Shown: piece by piece, positions 3,370 to 47,836 of the stretch | Numbering within the stretch: position 1 is the first letter of the stretch | Layout of the letters: every line of letters starts with the position of its first letter | Sequence record: NC_049832.1 | Reading direction: 5' to 3' (one strand) | From: Escherichia phage vB_EcoS-DELF2 | DNA length: 50,168 nt | Notes under the pieces: model-generated | Told to the model about the DNA's origin: nothing | Database searches by the model: none | What the model saw: only the letters and a program-made list of their open reading frames with translations | Translations under genes and position numbers: made by a program

Positions 3370-4131
3370 TTAATCTCCTGTAGAAAAGTCTGGAACAGCC
3401 CAACAGCGGCAATTGTATTCTTCACCCGGGAATACGTGATCGGAATCTACCGCTATACGCTTACCTTCCCATCTTACATGCTTTTCACGTTCACGTAAAT
3501 CCATCACCCCGCGCCAGAAATAGTAAGAGACTCCAGCGTCTTTTATGCGCTGCCGCATCAGTCTACTGTTCCATGTTCCGACAATCCCCGACGCTCTGTT
3601 TTTGGACCAATTCCGGTAAATACCAAATCGCTCCTTAGCAAGTTCAACAACAAAATCCTTGCTTTTACCCTGACCGGATGCCGCACGAAGTTTATCAGTG
3701 AAATCAGTAACCATGTTGGCGGCAAATTTCCTGATAGAAGTAGTCACCTGCGATCGCCACAGATTATATTGTCCTGAGTACCAGTTTTCGGCAGCGGTAG
3801 GACCAATCAGGGCAAGTAGCATTACGGCTTGATTCTTCTTACCTCCAGCATTTCGAGCTATTCGCAACCACTGCTTAGAGTTGAATTTATAGATAGTTAG
3901 CGCGACGGATGATAGAGATCCGATAATCGGCGCGATTAGAGATTCGACGTAATCAAGCAATGACCTTTCCGCTTGGTCTATCTCTTCGTCGGTAGCGTCA
4001 AATTTCATCGGCTTTAATTCGTCACGCATTCTTTCTGTTAGTCTGGCTGCAACATCCTGTAAGGAGCGCGACATTGCGCGCTCGCTCATTTCAGGATAGC
4101 GCCACTGTGTTGCAACGCCATTAATTTTCAT
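3370..4131 (-). CDS. head morphogenesis / minor head protein
   Basis: Immediately downstream of portal, overlapping start/stop; typical position of SPP1 gp7/Mu F-like protein. Confidence 0.45.
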   Translation of the reverse strand: MKINGVATQWRYPEMSERAMSRSLQDVAARLTERMRDELKPMKFDATDEEIDQAERSLLDYVESLIAPIIGSLSSVALTIYKFNSKQWLRIARNAGGKKNQAVMLLALIGPTAAENWYSGQYNLWRSQVTTSIRKFAANMVTDFTDKLRAASGQGKSKDFVVELAKERFGIYRNWSKNRASGIVGTWNSRLMRQRIKDAGVSYYFWRGVMDLREREKHVRWEGKRIAVDSDHVFPGEEYNCRCWAVPDFSTGD

Positions 4132-5404
4132 CTTCTAACTTCTCCCCTAATCCCGGTTCCGGCTCTGTTGTTTCTTCCGGTTCGCGAATGTTGATGTTAT
4201 TACCATCCTTGAGTTTGAACTCAGGCGCAATGGATCGCAACGTGTCGCGAGCTTCTTCCAGATCGATGATTTGCTCGGTGATAGCTTTCGTTACCGACTC
4301 AATGTTGTTCTTCGTGATCTCGGATTCTTCTTTCTTGCTCGGGACCGACAGCGGATCAAACTCGATGGACCACTCTTCTTCGTCAACAATGAACGGCAAC
4401 AAGAACTCAAGAAGCGGTCTGTAATCCTCTTCACGCTTGCGATCGACTAACTTATAGAAAGTCTCAAGCGCCGTGTTTTGGCTCGCTGATACGCCGCCTA
4501 CGTTCTTATTCTTAATGATAATCTCATGAATCCCGGATAGGGAGACAATGCGGTCCATCTTGCTTGATAAGAACTCAGGAACTCCGCTGATATCAGAGTT
4601 TAGAACGTCGTATTCTTCCGTCTCGGCATCGATACCGATCGCACGGCCAACACCTGAATTATCGTCAACCTGAGCCAGTCTCAAGCGCGCTGCATACCGA
4701 GCATTATCATCATCACACATTTCAACAAGACCTTTGACTTTCCATACCGCCTGCTGCTTACGCCTCAGGATCTGAGTCGCTAGAGATTCGCAATAGTCGT
4801 AGTCGCAGATCGCATCAATTAGTGACTTATTCAAAACTGAAGCACCCCACCCTTGATTCTGTTTTCTAGTCTGAGGTGTTACTCGTTCACCATCAGCAAT
4901 AAAAATTCTTGTGTGGTGGATTAAGTAAGGTTGAATATTGTCACCAGGAGACACCTTATAGATCTCAGGTTCACCATAGCGAGGCGATCGAGCATTAGTT
5001 ACTCTTTTTTCGATTGTAATTGCGAATCTATCATAAACACGCACACCTTCAAGTTTAGCTCCAGGTTTAACTGGACTGGTTAGCATTCTGTTGTCGTTAA
5101 TGATCGCTACAATAGCCGCTCCACCGTATAGGCGCGCCCAGCAAAGAACATCAACCAAGCTAGGATCAATTTTGTAACTATCCCACAGAGATTTGAACTC
5201 CTTTTCATCCTTGACTCCTGATATTTTAAAACCAGCCGTAACCATCTCTTCAGGGATCACGTCGACAATTCTTTTCGCTGTCGCGTTGTCGTTATAGAAT
5301 GAGCCGACGTTATATGACGCATCAACCATAAAAAATGGTTTAGGTGAGCCGTCCGCGCCGCCGTTAAAGATATCGTTATAACCATCATGCTTAACAATTT
5401 TCAT
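4121..5404 (-). CDS. portal protein
   Basis: 427 aa ORF directly downstream of large terminase; acidic C-terminus; conserved module order. Confidence 0.7.
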   Translation of the reverse strand: MKIVKHDGYNDIFNGGADGSPKPFFMVDASYNVGSFYNDNATAKRIVDVIPEEMVTAGFKISGVKDEKEFKSLWDSYKIDPSLVDVLCWARLYGGAAIVAIINDNRMLTSPVKPGAKLEGVRVYDRFAITIEKRVTNARSPRYGEPEIYKVSPGDNIQPYLIHHTRIFIADGERVTPQTRKQNQGWGASVLNKSLIDAICDYDYCESLATQILRRKQQAVWKVKGLVEMCDDDNARYAARLRLAQVDDNSGVGRAIGIDAETEEYDVLNSDISGVPEFLSSKMDRIVSLSGIHEIIIKNKNVGGVSASQNTALETFYKLVDRKREEDYRPLLEFLLPFIVDEEEWSIEFDPLSVPSKKEESEITKNNIESVTKAITEQIIDLEEARDTLRSIAPEFKLKDGNNINIREPEETTEPEPGLGEKLEDEN

Positions 5405-7906: not shown

Positions 7907-8092
7907 TTAAATCTCCTTGATTAATTCAATATTTATTTTGTGAGTGTCAAGGTTAGCGCCGGAAAGTTTTTTTGCTTTCGTGATGGCTTCTGCCTGACTG
8001 GTTGCTGATAATTCAGTTTCGAAAGATTGCTTGCAAGACTGGCAAAACATACCCATCTTTCGAATGATTAATTTAATTTTGAATCGCTTCAT
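7907..8092 (-). CDS. hypothetical protein
   Basis: 61 aa ORF; alternative 47-aa ORF in another frame at about 8095..8238 also possible. Confidence 0.25.
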   Translation of the reverse strand: MKRFKIKLIIRKMGMFCQSCKQSFETELSATSQAEAITKAKKLSGANLDTHKINIELIKEI

Positions 8093-8398
8093 CTTCCTGC
8101 GCCTTAATCATAACGCCAGCAATGCGACCAATAACAGCCTCGCCAGGATTTAATCGTTTTTTATAACGAGTGGTTTCACCGTTGCGAGTTACTTTAATTT
8201 CAATTTTTACTGTTTCATCTTTAGTGTTTTGCATTATGCAATCCTCTTGAATTTTTGCCGCTTACGGGTCTGCGGCGTTGCTTAACCACTATGCAACCGA
8301 GCTTGTTATCTGGAAGTGTGAGAATCGTCTCACGCGTTGCGCTTAGTTGCGCCTCGTCTGTCTACGGGATTAATACTATCACCGCTCAGGGATTTAGG

Positions 8399-8602
8399 TC
8401 AATCATTAATTTCGAATTGCCCCTTAGTCATATCCTGCGGGTAATCAATCTCGTGCAGGTTTCCATCATCGCCGTACACGAATACCAATCTCTTTGATTT
8501 ACTAACCTTTTCCACATCGCACGCGCACCCTGCTGAGAAAGCATCGCTATTGCGTGAAGTGACACATCGAACCTGCTCGCCTTTCTTCGGTAAGTTAGCC
8601 AT
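8399..8602 (-). CDS. hypothetical protein
   Basis: ORF in co-oriented early block. Confidence 0.4.
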   Translation of the reverse strand: MANLPKKGEQVRCVTSRNSDAFSAGCACDVEKVSKSKRLVFVYGDDGNLHEIDYPQDMTKGQFEIND

Positions 8603-8832
8603 TATTCGTAATCCCCTTCTTTGTTCCCTACGCGCCCAGCAATATACCCGGCAGTCCAGACAAATTTGTATCGGTCAATGAGTAGCTCGACCTTTTTGTG
8701 GTGAGTCGAGATTACATCAATCATGATCTTGTCGTTCTTCCGATCTTCTTTCTTCATTCCGCTGACGAATTTGTTTAATTCTTTCGCGGCACGCTTTACA
8801 ACATTCCACTCCGCTTCGCTTAAACCGAACAT
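8602..8832 (-). CDS. hypothetical protein
   Basis: ORF with overlapping stop/start to neighbours. Confidence 0.4.
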   Translation of the reverse strand: MFGLSEAEWNVVKRAAKELNKFVSGMKKEDRKNDKIMIDVISTHHKKVELLIDRYKFVWTAGYIAGRVGNKEGDYE

Positions 8833-9176
8833 TATTTATCACCTTTGAATGAAAAACTTACACCTAAAACCTGATTGCAAACCGACTCCATGTATCGCAA
8901 CTGGTATTGAGCAACCTTTGAAGGACTTAATTCATCGGTAAATAAATCCTCAACGTTGATTTCTTTTTTATGCTTGCGCTTCCATGCCTTGATGATATTT
9001 GGCAGGATTCGCTCGCTTTTCCAGGCTGCAAACTCAGCTTGGTTGGTTGATGCTGGGGTAAGCTGTCTTTCGATCTGGTTAAGAATCTCAGCGGTGGCGC
9101 CTTTTACGTGAAGTTGTTCGCCGATAGTGTCGAGGATTTCACGCGCTTGTTTATCTGACAGGTTAATCGTGATCAT
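8832..9176 (-). CDS. hypothetical protein
   Basis: ORF with overlapping stop/start to neighbours. Confidence 0.4.
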   Translation of the reverse strand: MITINLSDKQAREILDTIGEQLHVKGATAEILNQIERQLTPASTNQAEFAAWKSERILPNIIKAWKRKHKKEINVEDLFTDELSPSKVAQYQLRYMESVCNQVLGVSFSFKGDK

Positions 9177-9382
9177 GCTTCTTCTCCTTCATCTTCGATC
9201 GGGGTAAAAAACTGAGTGTTCACTGCCGGGTTATAATAAACCCCATCGTCATAGTCGCTTTCTTTCACTTCAATGAAAACGTCGCAACCGTCATGCATGA
9301 AGTCACCATTATCAGTATGAACCAGTTCGAATACTTCAGAAGTTTTAGTGCAAGTGAAAAACTTATCAGTTGATACCATCAT
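9173..9382 (-). CDS. hypothetical protein
   Basis: Preceded by palindrome motif 9440..9458 plus TGaTATAGT extended -10 and GAGAGA RBS. Confidence 0.45.
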   Translation of the reverse strand: MMVSTDKFFTCTKTSEVFELVHTDNGDFMHDGCDVFIEVKESDYDDGVYYNPAVNTQFFTPIEDEGEEA

Positions 9383-9439
9383 TTCGATTTTCTCTCTTCG
9401 TTGTCGATGAGGTAACTATATCAAATCACCCCACCGACG

Positions 9440-9458
9440 TTTTAGCAATTCGTGCTAT
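9440..9458 (-). promoter_or_regulatory. palindrome motif copy (plus-strand text TTTTAGCAATTCGTGCTAT) with extended -10 TGaTATAGT 19 nt downstream
   Basis: Read directly; upstream gene stop codon TAG embedded in motif. Confidence 0.55.
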
Positions 9459-10027
9459 TTGTTGATGAACGTGGCGGCTATGTGCTGAGCGGTAATTTCT
9501 GGATTACCTTCGACAGAAAAGAAGTCACATTCCTGATAACCGTTGACCCCGATCATATCGTCAAGATAGATATAGTCGCGGCTGTCGTTGTCAAAGTTGC
9601 AACCGTTGCGATGGATTCGACATAGCTTTACCTGGATATCACCTTCAATCATCTGCAAGATCTCGTCTTTGAATCCACCGTCAGTAAATACCGAAAGGGA
9701 GTGAGACTCTTTCACCTTGCTTTCCGCTCGCATACCGAAGAAGCGATTTCCGAACTGCGGTTTGATGACCTCCTCGCTAATCCAGATCATAAACTGGCGC
9801 GGGCTTTTACCGTTCAGGATTGATGCTGGCTCTTCTTTATAGCGACGGTCCTCATACAAGAACATGAAATATTCGAAATTAGCCTCACCCAGGATTGCTC
9901 GAGCAATCTCAAACATTGGAGCTTTGAAGCTGCGTAGCGCTACATGATCGTAAGTGTCAGCCAGGATGCATCCGATAGTGTCTTTTCCTGCGCCCGGCGC
10001 GCCGTTTAAAATGATAGCTGTTTTCAT
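9455..10027 (-). CDS. P-loop nucleotide kinase (adenylate-kinase-like GAPGAGKDT)
   Basis: N-terminal P-loop NGAPGAGKDT. Confidence 0.55.
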   Translation of the reverse strand: MKTAIILNGAPGAGKDTIGCILADTYDHVALRSFKAPMFEIARAILGEANFEYFMFLYEDRRYKEEPASILNGKSPRQFMIWISEEVIKPQFGNRFFGMRAESKVKESHSLSVFTDGGFKDEILQMIEGDIQVKLCRIHRNGCNFDNDSRDYIYLDDMIGVNGYQECDFFSVEGNPEITAQHIAATFINK

Positions 10028-10135
10028 GTCAGTATCTCCCTAAAAATAATTTTGCCACATTGATGATGGTGTGATTGATGATTAACAGGATGATAACCGT
10101 TAACACCGGATGTGCTGCAATAAATTCGTACAGGT

Positions 10136-10669
10136 TCATTCATCTACCCCGTGAGATTTTAAATGATCGTGGACTTTATCGCCATAGTCAACTACAGCGT
10201 AAGTGGTTATTCCAAGCGACCGGAATAATGGAATAATTTGCGGTGAGTCATCCCAGGCCGCCAGGATATTCTCAATACCGATCGCGCGCACCGCCTCTTC
10301 TTTCATCACCGTGTCTTTGCGGTTGTCGGTATGCGGTCGCATAATCAGGTAATCATATCGAGCACCGTGATGCTTAAGCCATAACTCATATGCGTAACGA
10401 ACCTCATCGCTTCGCCCGGTTAAAATGATCACATGATGACCAGCGGCAAACATAGAGTTCATCACTTCAATCGTACTCTTGATTGGGTTATCAAATATTG
10501 CCGCTCGGTTAAACTCAGACCAGCTTTCAGTTAAGTGCAAATCCTTTGTCGGTAGCAGGTGAAGTAGACCAGATCCATCGCTAAGTGTTCCGTCAAAGTC
10601 AAAGATTGCTACGCGGCGAGTGCCGAGAAACAGGCTGATTGTCTTGCCCCAAATGGTAATTTTATCCAT
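10136..10669 (-). CDS. HAD-superfamily phosphatase
   Basis: HAD motif I FDFDGTL near N-terminus; adjacent to the kinase. Confidence 0.55.
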   Translation of the reverse strand: MDKITIWGKTISLFLGTRRVAIFDFDGTLSDGSGLLHLLPTKDLHLTESWSEFNRAAIFDNPIKSTIEVMNSMFAAGHHVIILTGRSDEVRYAYELWLKHHGARYDYLIMRPHTDNRKDTVMKEEAVRAIGIENILAAWDDSPQIIPLFRSLGITTYAVVDYGDKVHDHLKSHGVDE

Positions 10670-10734
10670 GATTTATTCCTCTGATTGGTTGCTTAACTCA
10701 ACGAAGGGCATTCTATCAAATACCCTTGAGCAAG

Positions 10735-10753
10735 TTTTAGCAATTCGTGCTAT
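10735..10753 (-). promoter_or_regulatory. palindrome motif copy with TGaTAGAAT -10, then CAACCAATCAGAGGA leader
   Basis: Read directly; 19-nt spacing to -10. Confidence 0.55.
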
Positions 10754-11199
10754 TACCAGCAACTGATCTCATAGTTGGCCCAGTCATCAAAGCTACCCTG
10801 ACTGAAGTCGCCGCCGTAGTTTTCCATAAGTTCATCGATCAGGAAGTAGCAGGATTCGCCGTTACGATAGAAGTATGAATCTGCAACGCTGCGCGCCCAA
10901 TGTCCGGCATCTTTCTTGCTCATCTTCCAGTACTTCATTGCAATCTTCTTGAATGCACGCACGACGCGCTTGCGGATCTTAATATGCTTATACACCGCGT
11001 TGCATCCATAGGCCATATATTCGTTATTGCCAAGATTCTGCATAATGTAAGGATTTACTTCTTTTGACGTAATCATCAGATCGCCATTGACGCAACGCGA
11101 ATCATGAATACTTGCTGTCATGTAGTGACCTTTGAACATTCCAATGCCGTGCAGGGTGTATTCATCGTTAGGCGCTTCAATGCAGATTAAGTGTTTCAT
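10753..11199 (-). CDS. hypothetical protein
   Basis: GAGGA RBS before internal ATG at 11199; track start 11241 sits too close to the motif. Confidence 0.4.
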   Translation of the reverse strand: MKHLICIEAPNDEYTLHGIGMFKGHYMTASIHDSRCVNGDLMITSKEVNPYIMQNLGNNEYMAYGCNAVYKHIKIRKRVVRAFKKIAMKYWKMSKKDAGHWARSVADSYFYRNGESCYFLIDELMENYGGDFSQGSFDDWANYEISCW

Positions 11200-11254
11200 T
11201 ATCGTTTCCTCGTTTGTTGGTGTAGGTGAATCATAGCGCATTCCCCTTGATAGG

Positions 11255-11273
11255 TTTTAGCAATTCGTGCTAT
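11255..11273 (-). promoter_or_regulatory. palindrome motif copy with TATGAT -10
   Basis: Motif encodes C-terminus NSTNC-stop of ORF 11257..11475. Confidence 0.5.
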
Positions 11274-11475
11274 TCGTTTTAATAGTGATGCAAAAATAAT
11301 TTTTTAAGCACGTCACCACGCGCGCTGAATCGACTTGTGGGAGCCTTAAAATTTCGTGGACCAATTGCACTTCCGACACCTCAGATTTGTAGTAGTGTGC
11401 GATTCTGGAGGTATTTGGGCGCATTCCTTCCACTGCTTCACGTGCTGCATCTTCTGCTGTCATGATAGTAGCCAT
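11257..11475 (-). CDS. hypothetical protein
   Basis: 72 aa ORF ending inside motif. Confidence 0.35.
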   Translation of the reverse strand: MATIMTAEDAAREAVEGMRPNTSRIAHYYKSEVSEVQLVHEILRLPQVDSARVVTCLKNYFCITIKTNSTNC

Positions 11476-11632: not shown

Positions 11633-12289
11633 TTAAACTACGAAAAACAGCACGATAAGAGAAATAAGAAGCACGGTAGCCATAGCCAGGTTTGCCAGAT
11701 TATCAATGTCCTTGTTGGTCAGCTTAGGCTTGACTTTACCATCAACTTCGATTGGCTTAACGCTGTGAATCTTACCCTGTTCGATGCGGAAAGCGCCCTT
11801 GATTCGACTGGTATTAAATTTCTGCTTCTTCTTGCCGAACGTTGCAAACTTAGTGCCGCCGCTATTCCATCGCAGACCTTCGCCATTATGCGTTACGGTA
11901 GCGATGCGGTGACGGCCCGTGTCGTCAGTAAGCGCTACAGTGTGCTTTGCGTGCTCAGTAGGAACGTCGTAGATTTTTCCAACAGTAAATTTTTTGGTGT
12001 TATCGCTGATACATTCAAATTTCATAAATTTTACCTCTTTATTATGCAGTTGATTGATTGCTTCGATTACGTCTCTAAATTTAACACCATCCACGATTCG
12101 ATGGAAGATATATTTTGAACTACCGCAATACGGCAGGAAAATTTCCTGGTACTCGTGACGACGGATGATGTTAACGTTGCTACCGTGCTCATCCACGACA
12201 ACGAAGCTGTCGTCATTGACGTGAGCGCCTTCGTAGATTTTTCCCCACTTAAAGCCCGATCCGTTACTTGATACGCATTCAAATTTCAC
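11633..12289 (-). CDS. repeat-domain protein with C-terminal transmembrane anchor
   Basis: Internal duplication (MKFECVSSNGSGFKWGKIYEG / MKFECISDNTKKFTVGKIYDV); hydrophobic C-terminus. Confidence 0.45.
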   Translation of the reverse strand: MKFECVSSNGSGFKWGKIYEGAHVNDDSFVVVDEHGSNVNIIRRHEYQEIFLPYCGSSKYIFHRIVDGVKFRDVIEAINQLHNKEVKFMKFECISDNTKKFTVGKIYDVPTEHAKHTVALTDDTGRHRIATVTHNGEGLRWNSGGTKFATFGKKKQKFNTSRIKGAFRIEQGKIHSVKPIEVDGKVKPKLTNKDIDNLANLAMATVLLISLIVLFFVV

Positions 12290-12573
12290 GGTCTAACCTT
12301 CCTATAAGGCTTGATTGATAACATCACGTATTGCGTGAAGTCGCATTCCTGATCGTCATACCCGCGATTGATGTATGGAGTCACGTCTGTAACATCGGAT
12401 ACCCTGGCGTGAACTTCCCACCCGGTAAACTCACCGCGATCGAACTCTCGTAGCTCCAAGATATCGCCAATCTGGAAGTTGCGGTCATTGATGCGGAACT
12501 CTGCCGTTTTGGTTCCGTTCATTACTCCAATGAAATGTACCGGGTTAATTTTTAACTTATGACTCTTGCTCAT
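12286..12573 (-). CDS. hypothetical protein
   Basis: ORF preceded by motif copy, TATAGT -10 and CAACCAATCAG leader. Confidence 0.45.
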   Translation of the reverse strand: MSKSHKLKINPVHFIGVMNGTKTAEFRINDRNFQIGDILELREFDRGEFTGWEVHARVSDVTDVTPYINRGYDDQECDFTQYVMLSIKPYRKVRP

Positions 12574-12636: not shown

Positions 12637-12655
12637 GTTTAGCAATTCGTGCTAT
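12637..12655 (-). promoter_or_regulatory. palindrome motif copy with TGaTATAGT -10
   Basis: Read directly; approximate coordinates. Confidence 0.5.
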
Positions 12656-12800
12656 CGTTTAACGCACATAGTTTTTACTTCATATCCGAACGGCTTGTTT
12701 TCTGCAATCACCTCCCGAGCTTTTTCGCATGATTGCTGACTTTCCATGTATACGTGATCCGACCCGGTGCTCATCAAGATAATCAAGACCCATGCAGCCA

Positions 12801-14943: not shown

Positions 14944-14962
14944 TTTTAACAATTCGTGCTAT
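14944..14962 (-). promoter_or_regulatory. palindrome motif copy with TGcTATAGT -10
   Basis: Read directly. Confidence 0.55.
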
Positions 14963-15429
14963 TTGGTGAGATATTTCACGCAGCTTCCGGCAGTTTCATT
15001 CCAGCCATCCTCAAAGAATACGCTATAGCATGTTGCCGAACGCTGGCGAATCTTAGATACAGTGCGCCACACCTTACGGCCCGAGTAACCAGTCAGCACG
15101 CGCATCCCTGGCAATAACTCACCCGACTTTCTCACCTTGATAGTCACATCAGCATCAAGCCCGAACGACTCAAGGCGAACAGGATTGACCATCTCAAACA
15201 TTCGCATAACTTCGTGATCTTCTTTCCACTCGCAGCCGCCGCTAGCCTTAACCGCTTCAACAAAATAACTCAGCTTATCAGTGAGTGAATCACCTTCGAA
15301 CGCCTCGATTGAGATAACCGTGTAGTGAGTGTACGCATGCCAGTGCGATCCGGTCTTGTGCTCAAACGCGAAGAATGACATTTCGCCATCAAGCTCATCT
15401 TTAGCCAGGAATACGGTAATGGTCGCCAT
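14959..15429 (-). CDS. hypothetical protein
   Basis: 156 aa ORF. Confidence 0.45.
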   Translation of the reverse strand: MATITVFLAKDELDGEMSFFAFEHKTGSHWHAYTHYTVISIEAFEGDSLTDKLSYFVEAVKASGGCEWKEDHEVMRMFEMVNPVRLESFGLDADVTIKVRKSGELLPGMRVLTGYSGRKVWRTVSKIRQRSATCYSVFFEDGWNETAGSCVKYLTK

Positions 15430-16536: not shown

Positions 16537-17230
16537 TTGTCTATACCTCGTTGTCTATGGGTGTAACTTTCAACTTCGAAAAACATGTTACAGCTACAAA
16601 GTCAGGAGCGTCAATGTCTATAGCTGCATTTTTTATTTTTGTAACCAGTGCAACCGATGCAACCGACTTTTTCTATAAAAGTAAGCACATCTATTTATGC
16701 GCGCGGAATGGTATGTTTTTTATACTATGCATCACGAAATATATGCCACCCTCAAAAAATGCGGTTGCACCTATTACGCCGATTACATACCAATATATAA
16801 TATAATAAATAAATAAATATATATTATCTATCTTATTATTATATATAGATATTTTATTATCTATAGGCCTATCGATTCTCGGGCCACTTTGTAACACCCC
16901 TGATGGTATACAACTATTACGACAATTACAACTACCGCATAGACGAATAGCACGTTTTGCTAAAAATGGAGATTACCACCAGGCGAACTGGGTAACACTA
17001 AATCCTCCCTCTCACAATCATTGCAATCTAAGCAACAAATCAACCGACTGTTGCACACCATGCAATAATCACGTTTCATCATTCGCAATCAATCACAATC
17101 AAAATTATTCCAACTATTCCAGCATTGATGTAATAATGAGCAATTATTGGAATAGCATTTTTTGCTAACGACTGGACCAGGTTGGCAGGGTATAGTTCTG
17201 GCCATCAACCAATCAGAAGAGGAAGCAGCA
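16537..17230. repeat. AT-rich divergent intergenic region with iteron-like repeats and two motif copies lacking or displaced from -10
   Basis: TTGTCTAT x2, TGTAAC/GTTACA, ATATTATCTATC, inverted TATCTAT/ATAGATA; motif copies at about 16947 and 17152. Confidence 0.5.
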
Positions 17231-20079: not shown

Positions 20080-20293
20080 TTAATGGAACAAGATAATTTC
20101 TGGACTCGTTATTTTGCAGCGCTTGATGACGGGCTTAGTGCCGAGTGGTGCATCAAATGTCGCATATAAAGAAATAACACTTGATGAGGCTCTTGGTGAT
20201 ATGGATATGGATACTGAAAGCGAATACGATCATAACTTTGAGATGCCCGGCGATGATATTGATGATAATGACGACGATTGCATTCCCTGGTAA

Positions 20294-20311
20294 ATAGCAC
20301 GATTTGTTAAT
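20294..20311 (+). promoter_or_regulatory. palindrome motif copy with TGaTAAAGT -10 and ACCAATCAGGAG leader
   Basis: Read directly. Confidence 0.5.
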
Positions 20312-20373
20312 ATTGCCGTAAGGTCATTTGATAAAGTGGCCTTATTCAAGATAACCAATCAGGAGCTAACGCC

Positions 20374-24420: not shown

Positions 24421-24440
24421 TTTTTATCAATTAGTGCGAT
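24421..24440 (-). promoter_or_regulatory. diverged palindrome motif (plus text TTTTTATCAATTAGTGCGAT) with CATAGT -10
   Basis: Same 19-nt spacing and AACCACATCGAAAC leader. Confidence 0.4.
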
Positions 24441-25582
24441 CCTGTCATTTCTGGACGATAGATGAAGCGACCTATTTCCCCAAACTGCTTATCGTAAACA
24501 ATTACAGCCGCCTGGCGATATGAGCGCCACCCTCCGCGTGCTGCGTATGCATCTTTCGCGCCTAACTGACCGTGCACTTCATCAATACCAAGCGAGTGCT
24601 CAGTGATTGTCTGGTGATGCCAGTGACCACTATGAGTATACACATACTTGCTCTCGCCGAAGTCTGATCGGAAATCTGCCGCCATTGCTGCAAGTCGCGT
24701 GTCTGCCTTTTTCATAGTGTGCCCGTGAGTGTATCCCAACAAGGTATTTCCCCAACGAGTCTTATGCAGAATCATAGGACTAACGTCAACGAATACTCGC
24801 GGCTCGTCTTCATAATATGCCGACATTGCAGCGCGTAGCCAAATCATCCCTGCCTGGTCGTGGTTCCCTTCGATAACCTGGACTTCGACTTCCTTGTGTT
24901 TCAGTAGCATTTTGTCGATAGCGCGACGAACAGATCTAATAGCTACATGCACCAATTTTGCATATCGTGAATCCTGATCCAGAACGTGACCACTTGCCGG
25001 GGTAACAGCATCAAGACCGTCCGAGTGAAGGAAGTCACCGCCGATTAAAAGAACGGCCTTCTCTGCGTTCGGAGCAATATCGATCGCGTAATTAAAGAAG
25101 TCGCTAAGCACTTTTTCCGCTACGTCGGTAGAGTAGTTCTCTCCACATTCATGCTTATGAGCAAGCGCGCCAATGTGAAGATCGAACACCGGGTATAGTG
25201 CCAGCTTGCCAATAGCGGTTGTAAGACCTTGCGATGTGAGTAGCTCAGTTGGCTTTGCTCGCGGCAAGTCTTCACAAAATGCAATGCGTGCAGCTTCCAT
25301 CATAGCTGCAATCTTCTCACGGTCCTGATCGGTCTTAACCCATCGCACGACCTCAGTCCCATCACCGCGAATCATTGTTGATGTGCCTTTTACCATGAAG
25401 CCTTCAGGAACGTTTTTAGCAACATGCTCATTGCCGTGAAAGTGGCCTTCTTTTGCCAATTTTGCGTGTCGAGCCTCAACAGTTCGAATATGCATACCGT
25501 ACTTTTCCGCGATCTCGCGAAGTGTAAGGCCGTTCATGCGCTCTTCGACAAGTTGCTCGGTAGTGATTTTAGCTTGTGACAT
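24431..25582 (-). CDS. metallophosphoesterase with N-terminal helix-turn-helix
   Basis: Calcineurin-like motifs GDFLHSD, GNHD, GHTHG, GHWHH; N-terminal HTH LTLREIAEKYGMHIRTVEARH. Confidence 0.7.
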   Translation of the reverse strand: MSQAKITTEQLVEERMNGLTLREIAEKYGMHIRTVEARHAKLAKEGHFHGNEHVAKNVPEGFMVKGTSTMIRGDGTEVVRWVKTDQDREKIAAMMEAARIAFCEDLPRAKPTELLTSQGLTTAIGKLALYPVFDLHIGALAHKHECGENYSTDVAEKVLSDFFNYAIDIAPNAEKAVLLIGGDFLHSDGLDAVTPASGHVLDQDSRYAKLVHVAIRSVRRAIDKMLLKHKEVEVQVIEGNHDQAGMIWLRAAMSAYYEDEPRVFVDVSPMILHKTRWGNTLLGYTHGHTMKKADTRLAAMAADFRSDFGESKYVYTHSGHWHHQTITEHSLGIDEVHGQLGAKDAYAARGGWRSYRQAAVIVYDKQFGEIGRFIYRPEMTGSH

Positions 25583-26409: not shown

Positions 26410-26428
26410 TTTTAGCAATTAGTGCTGT
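26410..26428 (-). promoter_or_regulatory. palindrome motif variant with TATAGT -10 and hairpin in spacer
   Basis: Read directly. Confidence 0.5.
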
Positions 26429-26670
26429 ACGATTGTATCAGCTTTAAGTTCTTCCACGTCTTTCTGTATGATTGAAGGCCAATTCTCTATGTATTCATTT
26501 TTTATCTCATCGAAAGACATATCAAGAGAACTAGTGAACTCCCACAGATCGCAACCAATAACATCCTGAGTCAATCCGTTTCGCTCCATAATTTCGCAGC
26601 AGGTAGCTCGATAAAGCAGCCATAAACCTTGATCAGTTAACTTAACCGGAATCATTTTCTCGTTCATCAT
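26419..26670 (-). CDS. hypothetical protein
   Basis: Start overlaps Dam stop. Confidence 0.4.
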   Translation of the reverse strand: MMNEKMIPVKLTDQGLWLLYRATCCEIMERNGLTQDVIGCDLWEFTSSLDMSFDEIKNEYIENWPSIIQKDVEELKADTIVQH

Positions 26671-31461: not shown

Positions 31462-31503
31462 ATAGCACAATGATAAAATCAGTGTTTAGCAATTCGTGCT
31501 ATT
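31462..31503. promoter_or_regulatory. inverted pair of palindrome motif copies upstream of tail fiber gene
   Basis: ATAGCACAATGATAAAAT and TTTAGCAATTCGTGCTAT face each other. Confidence 0.4.
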
Positions 31504-47167: not shown

Positions 47168-47836
47168 TTAGGCACCAGGTGATGCCAGAGCGGATGAAAC
47201 GAAAGTGAAATCACCCTTCAGGGATACGGCGAGTTGTACCGTTTCCATTTCGTTTACTTGCGTAGATGGAATGTCGTTAAAAGACAAGATACCAGCCCAC
47301 ATGCGCATCTCGTTCGCTTTTGGAACATACATCCGAACCGCAGTTACCTGACCAGAAGAATCCAGCTTACGCAGAATAGGGTAGATCGGGTTATCAAATT
47401 CGTGCGCGAATGTGTAAGTTAGCGAGATCGCAGATTTAAACGTTGGGATCTGCTGTTCTTTATCGTCGGACAAGCACTGATAAGTGTAATACTGCTGCTC
47501 GCCGCCGTCCTGACCAATCTCCTGTACGCAAGGAATCTCAGTCCAGCCAGTAATTTTTGCAAAGCTCATCGTACCGCCAGCCGGGAAAACAAGAGTATCA
47601 GAGGTGTCAATCCCAGCGAGAGTGATGCTTGTTTCCTGAGCGTCAGTAACAATTAGCACTCGACTGACCATATTGGCCCAGGTTGACTGAGTTACAATAA
47701 CGTAATCGCCTTTTACTAAGTCACCCTTAGATGCAACTGTAGCAACAGGATTTTCTGCGTTAGTAATAGCGGTTGCCTCAATCTCTTCTCCGCGAGAGGT
47801 TTCCACGAAAATTTGCGCGCCATTTGGTAAGTGCAT
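47168..47836 (-). CDS. major tail protein
   Basis: Upstream of chaperone and tape measure; AAGGAG RBS before ATG 47836; terminator after gene. Confidence 0.7.
   Translation of the reverse strand: MHLPNGAQIFVETSRGEEIEATAITNAENPVATVASKGDLVKGDYVIVTQSTWANMVSRVLIVTDAQETSITLAGIDTSDTLVFPAGGTMSFAKITGWTEIPCVQEIGQDGGEQQYYTYQCLSDDKEQQIPTFKSAISLTYTFAHEFDNPIYPILRKLDSSGQVTAVRMYVPKANEMRMWAGILSFNDIPSTQVNEMETVQLAVSLKGDFTFVSSALASPGA

Follow-up and report, generated by a model that had tools for sequence, protein, structure and literature searches.

A conserved pairing of a Pnkp-family phosphatase with a T4 gp1-type kinase in the T1-like phage vB_EcoS-DELF2 and its probable part in DNA-precursor salvage

The genome of Escherichia phage vB_EcoS-DELF2 (NC_049832.1), analysed here over a stretch of 50,168 nucleotides (nt) that we refer to as the window, is that of a T1-like siphovirus (Tunavirus, Drexlerviridae). 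On its minus strand, the window encodes a stand-alone phosphatase of the T4 Pnkp 3'-phosphatase family and, behind a small third open reading frame (ORF), a kinase of the T4 gp1 deoxynucleoside monophosphate (dNMP) type. The two genes form a pair that is conserved across phage lineages, and we propose, with a probability of roughly 0.6, that the region is a DNA-precursor salvage module recycling DNA breakdown products. The features under discussion are as follows.

10710..10754, minus strand: promoter-type element, a 20-nt motif (10735-10754) followed by a TGn-extended, -10-like TAGAAT (10710-10715)
10136..10669, minus strand: stand-alone HAD phosphatase of the T4-Pnkp 3'-phosphatase family, 177 amino acids (aa)
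10029..10139, minus strand: hydrophobic micro-ORF of 36 aa, MNLYEFIAAHPVLTVIILLIINHTIINVAKLFLGRY (from translation)
9455..10027, minus strand: predicted T4-gp1-type deoxynucleoside monophosphate kinase, 190 aa
9440..9459, minus strand: promoter-type motif copy at the kinase stop codon, assigned to the downstream gene 9382..9173
24431..25582, minus strand: 'DNA repair exonuclease' with helix-turn-helix (HTH) and metallophosphoesterase domains, a distal candidate partner

Both ORFs are conserved proteins, and chance ORFs are ruled out because homologues were recovered for the kinase (n = 81) and the phosphatase (n > 442) and tblastn placed them in 1429 and 2002 phage records, respectively. Many Escherichia and Shigella T1-like phages share 91-95% identity across 2.3 kb around the locus, and the best-matching records are ~91-92% identical to the first 25 kb of the window. 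GenBank relatives (93-99% identity) already carry both genes annotated, the phosphatase gene as 'polynucleotide kinase' or '3'-phosphatase, 5'-polynucleotide kinase' and the kinase gene as 'kinase', 'putative P-loop NTPase' or 'deoxynucleoside monophosphate kinase'; the feature itself is an ordinary one. A preliminary description of this DNA, made from the letters alone, had noted a P-loop (GAPGAGKDT) in 9455..10027 and a HAD motif (FDFDGTL) in 10136..10669. Both motifs are present in minus-strand ORFs of 190 and 177 aa, whereas the separate promoters proposed for the two genes were not borne out (see below).

The phosphatase ORF contains the sequence AIFDFDGTL, which represents HAD motif I, with FDFDGTL at residues 23-29. 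Residues 21-159 match positions 4-138 of the 143 in the Pfam model PF25109 (HAD_PNKP) with 59.2 bits against a gathering cut-off of 27.6, and the protein matches phrog_415 at 5e-64. Matches in a sequence search of the PDB were limited to Pnkp1 and T4 Pnkp, hhalign aligned 136 columns with T4-like Pnkp at 98.5% probability, and in the fold comparison the protein was nearest to solved Pnkp phosphatase domains. The residues of motif I (D24-x-D26-G27-T28), motif II (T84-G-R86-S), motif III (K118) and motif IV (D140-D141) are invariant or nearly so within the family and align to T4-like Pnkp. Catalytic-motif residues of T4 Pnkp include R213 (motif II) and D277 (motif IV); roles have also been described for D165 (nucleophile), D167 (acid/base), S211 (motif II), K258 (motif III) and D278 (motif IV). 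The latter five assignments are documented in PMC3592404. By these comparisons, the HAD protein is a member of the Pnkp phosphatase family and a putative 3'-phosphatase.

T4 PseT/Pnkp (PDB 1LTQ, 5UJ0) and Capnocytophaga Pnkp1 (4XRP) carry a fused kinase, whereas the window phosphatase stands alone, lacks a Pnk-type kinase and lies beside a kinase of a different family. Furthermore, T4 PseT/Pnkp belongs to phrog_505 and the window phosphatase to a separate PHROG, 415. Between motifs I and II, members of the phrog_415 subfamily, the window protein among them, share a strongly conserved insertion of 13 residues (LLPTKDLHLTESW) that T4-like Pnkp lacks. Stand-alone HAD-superfamily DNA 3'-phosphatases without a fused kinase are known from yeast (Tpp1) and Arabidopsis (ZDP, which bears zinc fingers); these belong to the eukaryotic PNKP phosphatase branch, outside Pfam HAD_PNKP.

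The window copy of the phosphatase departs from its relatives at codon 35, where CTA (10565-10567) encodes Leu; all other loci examined have Arg (79 of 79). The Leu35 column aligns with Arg176 of T4 Pnkp, which Wang and Shuman are said to have found essential for the T4 phosphatase in 2002. The Arg35-to-Leu change may have weakened the window phosphatase, yielding a hypomorphic or inactive allele, or else be a sequencing error. In Shigella phage phiL, the phosphatase gene has a stop codon within the DxDGT motif, and because of this stop codon and the Leu35 variant in the window copy, the gene seems to be dispensable in culture. Many phosphatase relatives also have a CxH...CxxC C-terminal tail, which the window copy and that of T1 lack. 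The tail forms part of a 26-aa C-terminal extension in phage LeonhardEuler and in protein P0082, and more distant relatives are similar. At the 3' end of the window gene (10136), the difference from LeonhardEuler (compared region 47591-47671) is a clean 78-nt indel. In carrying such a tail, some T1-like phosphatases bear a likeness to the zinc-finger protein ZDP.

The kinase ORF begins with MKTAIILNGAPGAGKDT and has its P-loop at residues 9-17. Its conserved motifs are GAPGAGKDT, SFKxPMF, DR..KE, LNGKSPRQFMIWISE..IKP.FG, TDGGF..E and DSR. Over its full length (residues 1-187), it matches profile positions 82-260 of phrog_139 ('dNMP kinase') with an E-value of 5.4e-46, the same region to which the biochemically characterised T4 gp1 aligns (positions 83-261, E-value 1.8e-65). 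The top PDB match in the fold comparison was 1DEK, which is T4 gp1. An hhalign comparison with T4 gp1 covered 74 columns including the non-P-loop DR and LNGKSP motifs (74% probability, E-value 2.7e-5), whereas the alignment with T4-like Pnkp was limited to a 23-column P-loop. Named kinase matches in a viral structure library were nearly all dNMP kinases, and the kinase family comprises 4321 representatives at E <=0.001. Because of the shared PHROG and profile region, the 1DEK fold match, the N-terminal hhalign alignment extending past the P-loop and the viral structure matches, we place the kinase with the T4 gp1 dNMP kinase, apart from the Pnk kinases, with dNMP kinase activity as its predicted enzymatic role. 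Comparison with PDB chains, using the single sequence and the family profile, returned P-loop noise and no sequence-level match. No Pnk/Clp1-type 5'-OH polynucleotide kinase domain was found fused or adjacent to the phosphatase. The two gp1-type proteins differ considerably, with ~13% identity in the structural alignment and lengths of 241 aa (T4 gp1) and 190 aa (window kinase), and the DNA of T1-like phages is without hydroxymethylcytosine.

Nine copies of a 20-nt motif, which reads AATAGCACGAATTGCTAAAA in the direction of transcription, are present in the window (0 expected), at the following positions.

9440-9459, 10735-10754, 11255-11274, 12637-12656, 14944-14963: 20-nt motif copies
16946-16965, 20293-20312, 26410-26429, 31484-31503: 20-nt motif copies, continued

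Downstream of seven of the nine, at a distance of ~19-22 nt, comes a TAtAgT-like, often TGn-extended -10, and then a conserved leader (ACCAATCAGAGG) and a start codon; neither the -10 nor the leader accompanies the copies at 16946 and 31484. Since the TTGCTA within the motif is too distant from the -10 to be a standard -35, the motif could instead serve as an upstream element or as the site of a regulator. The copy at 10735-10754 is located upstream of the phosphatase gene, where the element 10710..10754 would act as a putative promoter. The copy at 9440-9459 overlaps the stop codon of the kinase gene from its downstream side and is oriented towards the gene 9382..9173; it probably marks the 3' boundary of the operon as the putative promoter of that gene. 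Between the phosphatase and kinase genes there is no copy of the motif, and a scan of positions 9000-11400 for sigma-70 promoters and terminators found fewer sites than in shuffled controls and no noteworthy internal promoter or terminator.

The 108-nt 'gap' between the two genes is taken up by the conserved 36-aa ORF 10029..10139 (minus strand), whose start overlaps the phosphatase stop codon (ATGA) and which ends 1 nt before the kinase ATG. Because of this overlap and spacing, we read the three genes (phosphatase, 36-aa ORF and kinase) as a single operon with translational coupling, predicted to lie behind one promoter-type motif; the preliminary description had instead assumed separate genes with a motif-type promoter each. 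At the protein level, the micro-ORF is 94-100% conserved among 13 Tunavirus loci, and two more distant loci retain 69% and 46%; it is annotated as bas13_0075 in phage LeonhardEuler and has no match in PHROG. Further upstream on the same strand, the window encodes a 218-aa protein (11633-12289, phrog_10580) with an apparent internal duplication (MKFEC.S...GKIY twice) and a hydrophobic C-terminal tail, and, 1.6 kb upstream of the operon, a 95-aa protein (12286-12573) matching the phrog_986 'RNA-binding protein'. In a Gordonia phage, a gene labelled 'ASC-1 transcription coactivator' is located two genes upstream of that phage's own stand-alone phosphatase.

Of 80 Drexlerviridae loci from IMG/VR, 74 have the phosphatase gene upstream of the kinase gene on the same strand, 0-2.2 kb apart. 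The two genes are directly adjacent, overlapping or with few bases between them, in Kagunavirus K1ind1, and the same adjacency is found in the T7-like Autographiviridae Aeromonas phage LAh4, a 50-kb Yersinia myovirus and a Pseudomonas phage. Moreover, the proteins P0218 (403 aa) and P0232 (461 aa) each combine, in one chain, an N-terminal HAD_PNKP domain with a C-terminal gp1-like kinase, joined by a 60-110-aa linker with the common motif ..GPELHG..; this phosphatase-kinase order is the reverse of that in T4-type Pnkp. P0218 is present on three contigs, and the two loci returned stem from two sequencing runs. One of them is a 60.8-kb phage contig (locus positions 8001-9212), on which a phrog_704-type exonuclease comes directly after P0218, ahead of PAPS-reductase-like and Dam-like genes. 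An origin of the fusions as assembly artefacts was ruled out by the occurrence of P0218 on three contigs and in two runs, the translation of the loci to the query and the linker motif shared with P0232. The kinase-phosphatase pair is a conserved module found in at least five unrelated phage lineages and fused in one lineage, which goes further than the preliminary description, where the two genes were only taken to belong together.

A third gene recurs with the pair. The window exonuclease (24431..25582, minus strand; 383 aa) has an HTH at its N-terminus and a weak metallophosphoesterase signature (GNHD); it matches the phrog_704 'DNA repair exonuclease' at 2e-156 and is 45% identical to the exonuclease encoded directly before the pair in K1ind1. 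Triads of exonuclease, HAD phosphatase and kinase are found in K1ind1, Yersinia vB_YenM_531 and Pseudomonas PsgS01F, with the exonuclease gene directly upstream of the pair. In the window, the exonuclease gene lies 14 kb from the pair, whereas it is contiguous with the pair in other lineages, and its functional link with the window pair is a proposed one.

Several phages carry one of the two partners in the company of other genes. In the T7-like phages PPWS2 and J8-65, a dATP/dGTP diphosphohydrolase replaces the kinase in the slot after the phosphatase. The Krischvirus Escherichia phage AV108 encodes a full PseT and an RNA ligase and, in addition, a second, stand-alone phrog_415 phosphatase (locus positions 3998-4474), the start of which overlaps the end of nrdB. 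These arrangements bear on the possibility that the two enzymes merely share an operon, with a DNA 3'-phosphatase cleaning ends for the exonuclease and for Erf/RecE-type recombination-dependent replication, and the kinase acting as an uncoupled dNMP kinase. Such a division of labour would suit the window, which encodes an ERF annealing protein, a PDDEXK exonuclease and the metallophosphoesterase exonuclease, and it would fit the recurrence of the exonuclease-phosphatase adjacency where another gene replaces the kinase (J8-65), as well as the existence of stand-alone DNA 3'-phosphatases such as Tpp1 and ZDP. However, the fusion on three contigs, with loci from two sequencing runs, and the co-transfer of the pair across five lineages argue for coupling, and the nrdB-coupled Krischvirus copy points to nucleotide metabolism, so that we consider independent functions unlikely.

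The kinase, in turn, is found with a different phosphatase. In a Vequintavirus and in a Klebsiella phage of 143 kb, the gene downstream of the kinase encodes a different DxDxT HAD phosphatase (phrog_420), and thyA and nrdA come next. The two phrog_420 phosphatases (locus positions 4600-5193 and 4578-5192) are 52% identical to each other; that of the Vequintavirus matches NT5C 5'(3')-deoxynucleotidase with 26.9 bits (cut-off 24.8), and that of the Klebsiella phage has no match in Pfam. This is a second, independent pairing of the kinase with a HAD protein. In animal cells, NT5C and deoxynucleoside kinases form an opposing pair, and the window phosphatase could likewise be a deoxynucleotidase opposing the kinase in a pool-balancing substrate cycle, or the pair could act on a non-canonical or signalling nucleotide. 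The pairing of the Vequintavirus kinase with an NT5C-like HAD protein and of the Autographiviridae phosphatase with a deoxynucleoside triphosphate (dNTP) diphosphohydrolase would agree with such a cycle, and the 13-residue insertion of phrog_415 could alter specificity. Nevertheless, futile cycling of 5'-dNMPs would waste ATP, and T1-like DNA shows no sign of base modification other than Dam/Dcm methylation; we regard this explanation as highly improbable.

The preliminary description had also raised the possibility that the two genes are the split halves of a 5'-kinase/3'-phosphatase end-healing enzyme with a part in counter-defence. The gp1-like kinase would then phosphorylate 5'-OH ends, the HAD protein would remove 3'-phosphates and a host ligase (LigA/RtcB) would seal the breaks made by host defence nucleases. 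The pair would thereby constitute an independently evolved, domain-swapped and non-orthologous analogue of Pnkp, which, together with the exonuclease, would heal 5'-OH/3'-phosphate breaks of phage DNA or of RNA from host or phage. The membership of the HAD protein in the Pnkp phosphatase family speaks for this idea, as do the tight, conserved linkage of the two genes, the existence of the fusion proteins, the repair-annotated exonuclease adjoining the pair in several lineages and the zinc-ribbon-like tail on the phosphatases of some relatives. The kinase, however, is of the gp1 type and not of the Pnk type, and no ligase partner was found: in the ten non-structural ORFs of >=200 aa scanned with Pfam in the window, no ligase family was detected, smaller ORFs not having been scanned exhaustively, and the annotation of the close relative LeonhardEuler (83 genes) lists none, in agreement with the preliminary description, whereas Pnkp end-healing systems usually come with a ligase. 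In addition, AV108 already possesses PseT and RNA ligase and has its phrog_415 phosphatase as an nrdB-coupled extra copy, each partner is found alone beside nucleotide-pool enzymes, and the phosphatase seems dispensable in culture, as judged from the phiL stop codon and the Arg35-to-Leu change. A split end-healing enzyme thus appears distinctly unlikely. If it were real, the pair would represent a new class of end-repair enzyme and a counter-defence module that is widespread among T1-like, Kagunavirus and T7-like phages but has gone unrecognised.

The other option in the preliminary description, a dNMP kinase and a nucleotidase serving nucleotide metabolism, is better supported because of the genomic contexts in other phages. 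The kinase has the clear dNMP-kinase match that the preliminary description had named as speaking against end healing; the phosphatase, on the other hand, is of the Pnkp type and not the generic nucleotidase named with it. Among these contexts, the T7-like phages LAh4 and vB_VpaP_M9 encode the pair or the kinase just after exonuclease and endonuclease genes, which in T7 degrade host DNA. T7 also encodes a nucleotide kinase, gp1.7, besides the host-DNA breakdown genes gp3 and gp6, and offers an analogy in which a phage's own dNMP kinase pushes dNMPs from host DNA into the dNTP pool. The analogy is one of function, as to our knowledge gp1.7 has an unrelated kinase fold without a canonical P-loop, and we know of no phosphatase partner described for it.

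From the families of both proteins, the arrangement of the operon, the conserved linkage with its fused form and the association with nucleotide metabolism in other phages, we infer the following substrates, order of steps and physiological role for a DNA-precursor salvage module. The phosphatase would strip 3'-phosphates from 3'-phosphorylated DNA ends or fragments, or from free 3'-dNMP or pdNp, and would in this way unblock or correct 3'-phosphorylated products of degraded, mainly host, DNA. The metallophosphoesterase exonuclease would free 5'-dNMPs, which the gp1-type kinase would turn into deoxynucleoside diphosphates (dNDPs), and host NDP kinase would carry out the last step towards the precursors that phage DNA synthesis needs. 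For T4 Pnkp, hydrolysis of 3'-dTMP proceeds at 24 per second, and 3'-ribonucleoside monophosphates are not hydrolysed (PMC3592404). Because of this turnover of 3'-dTMP, a mononucleotide or DNA-fragment substrate for the window phosphatase would be chemically reasonable by analogy. A 2026 genome paper on T1-like phages notes the pair and independently suggests a role in 'enhancing nucleotide supply' (PMC13164509). Literature searches on the reuse of host DNA by T1 returned genome descriptions only. In a paper on retron Eco2, Drexlerviridae and PNK are mentioned merely in passing.

Several observations weigh against the salvage module. The characterised members of HAD_PNKP all act on polynucleotide ends in repair, the annotation of the exonuclease neighbour is that of a repair enzyme, and the fusion of a phosphatase with a P-loop kinase mirrors the architecture of Pnkp and would fit end healing as well. 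The CxH...CxxC extension on the phosphatases of some relatives could bind nucleic acid, and we know of no nuclease that yields 3'-phosphorylated DNA products in T1 infection. With respect to the kinase, the hhalign alignment with gp1 is confined to the N-terminal 74 columns at 74% probability, with the C-terminal half unaligned, and all curated kinase models of Pfam and NCBIfam stay below their cut-offs. Literature searches for tests of either protein found none, and returned genome descriptions only.

The practical value of these results is mainly corrective. In hundreds of Drexlerviridae records, a gene named 'polynucleotide kinase' or '3'-phosphatase, 5'-polynucleotide kinase' encodes a protein without a kinase domain. 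Because the phosphatase lacks such a domain and its neighbour is a homologue of dNMP kinases, these names alone provide no basis for assigning an end-healing or anti-defence role. Beyond the misnaming, three features merit a record: the fused form, the Leu35 variant and the micro-ORF. The module of exonuclease, phosphatase and kinase, together with its fused form, leads to the testable hypothesis that small virulent phages without a polymerase or reductase of their own may return degraded DNA to the dNTP pool.

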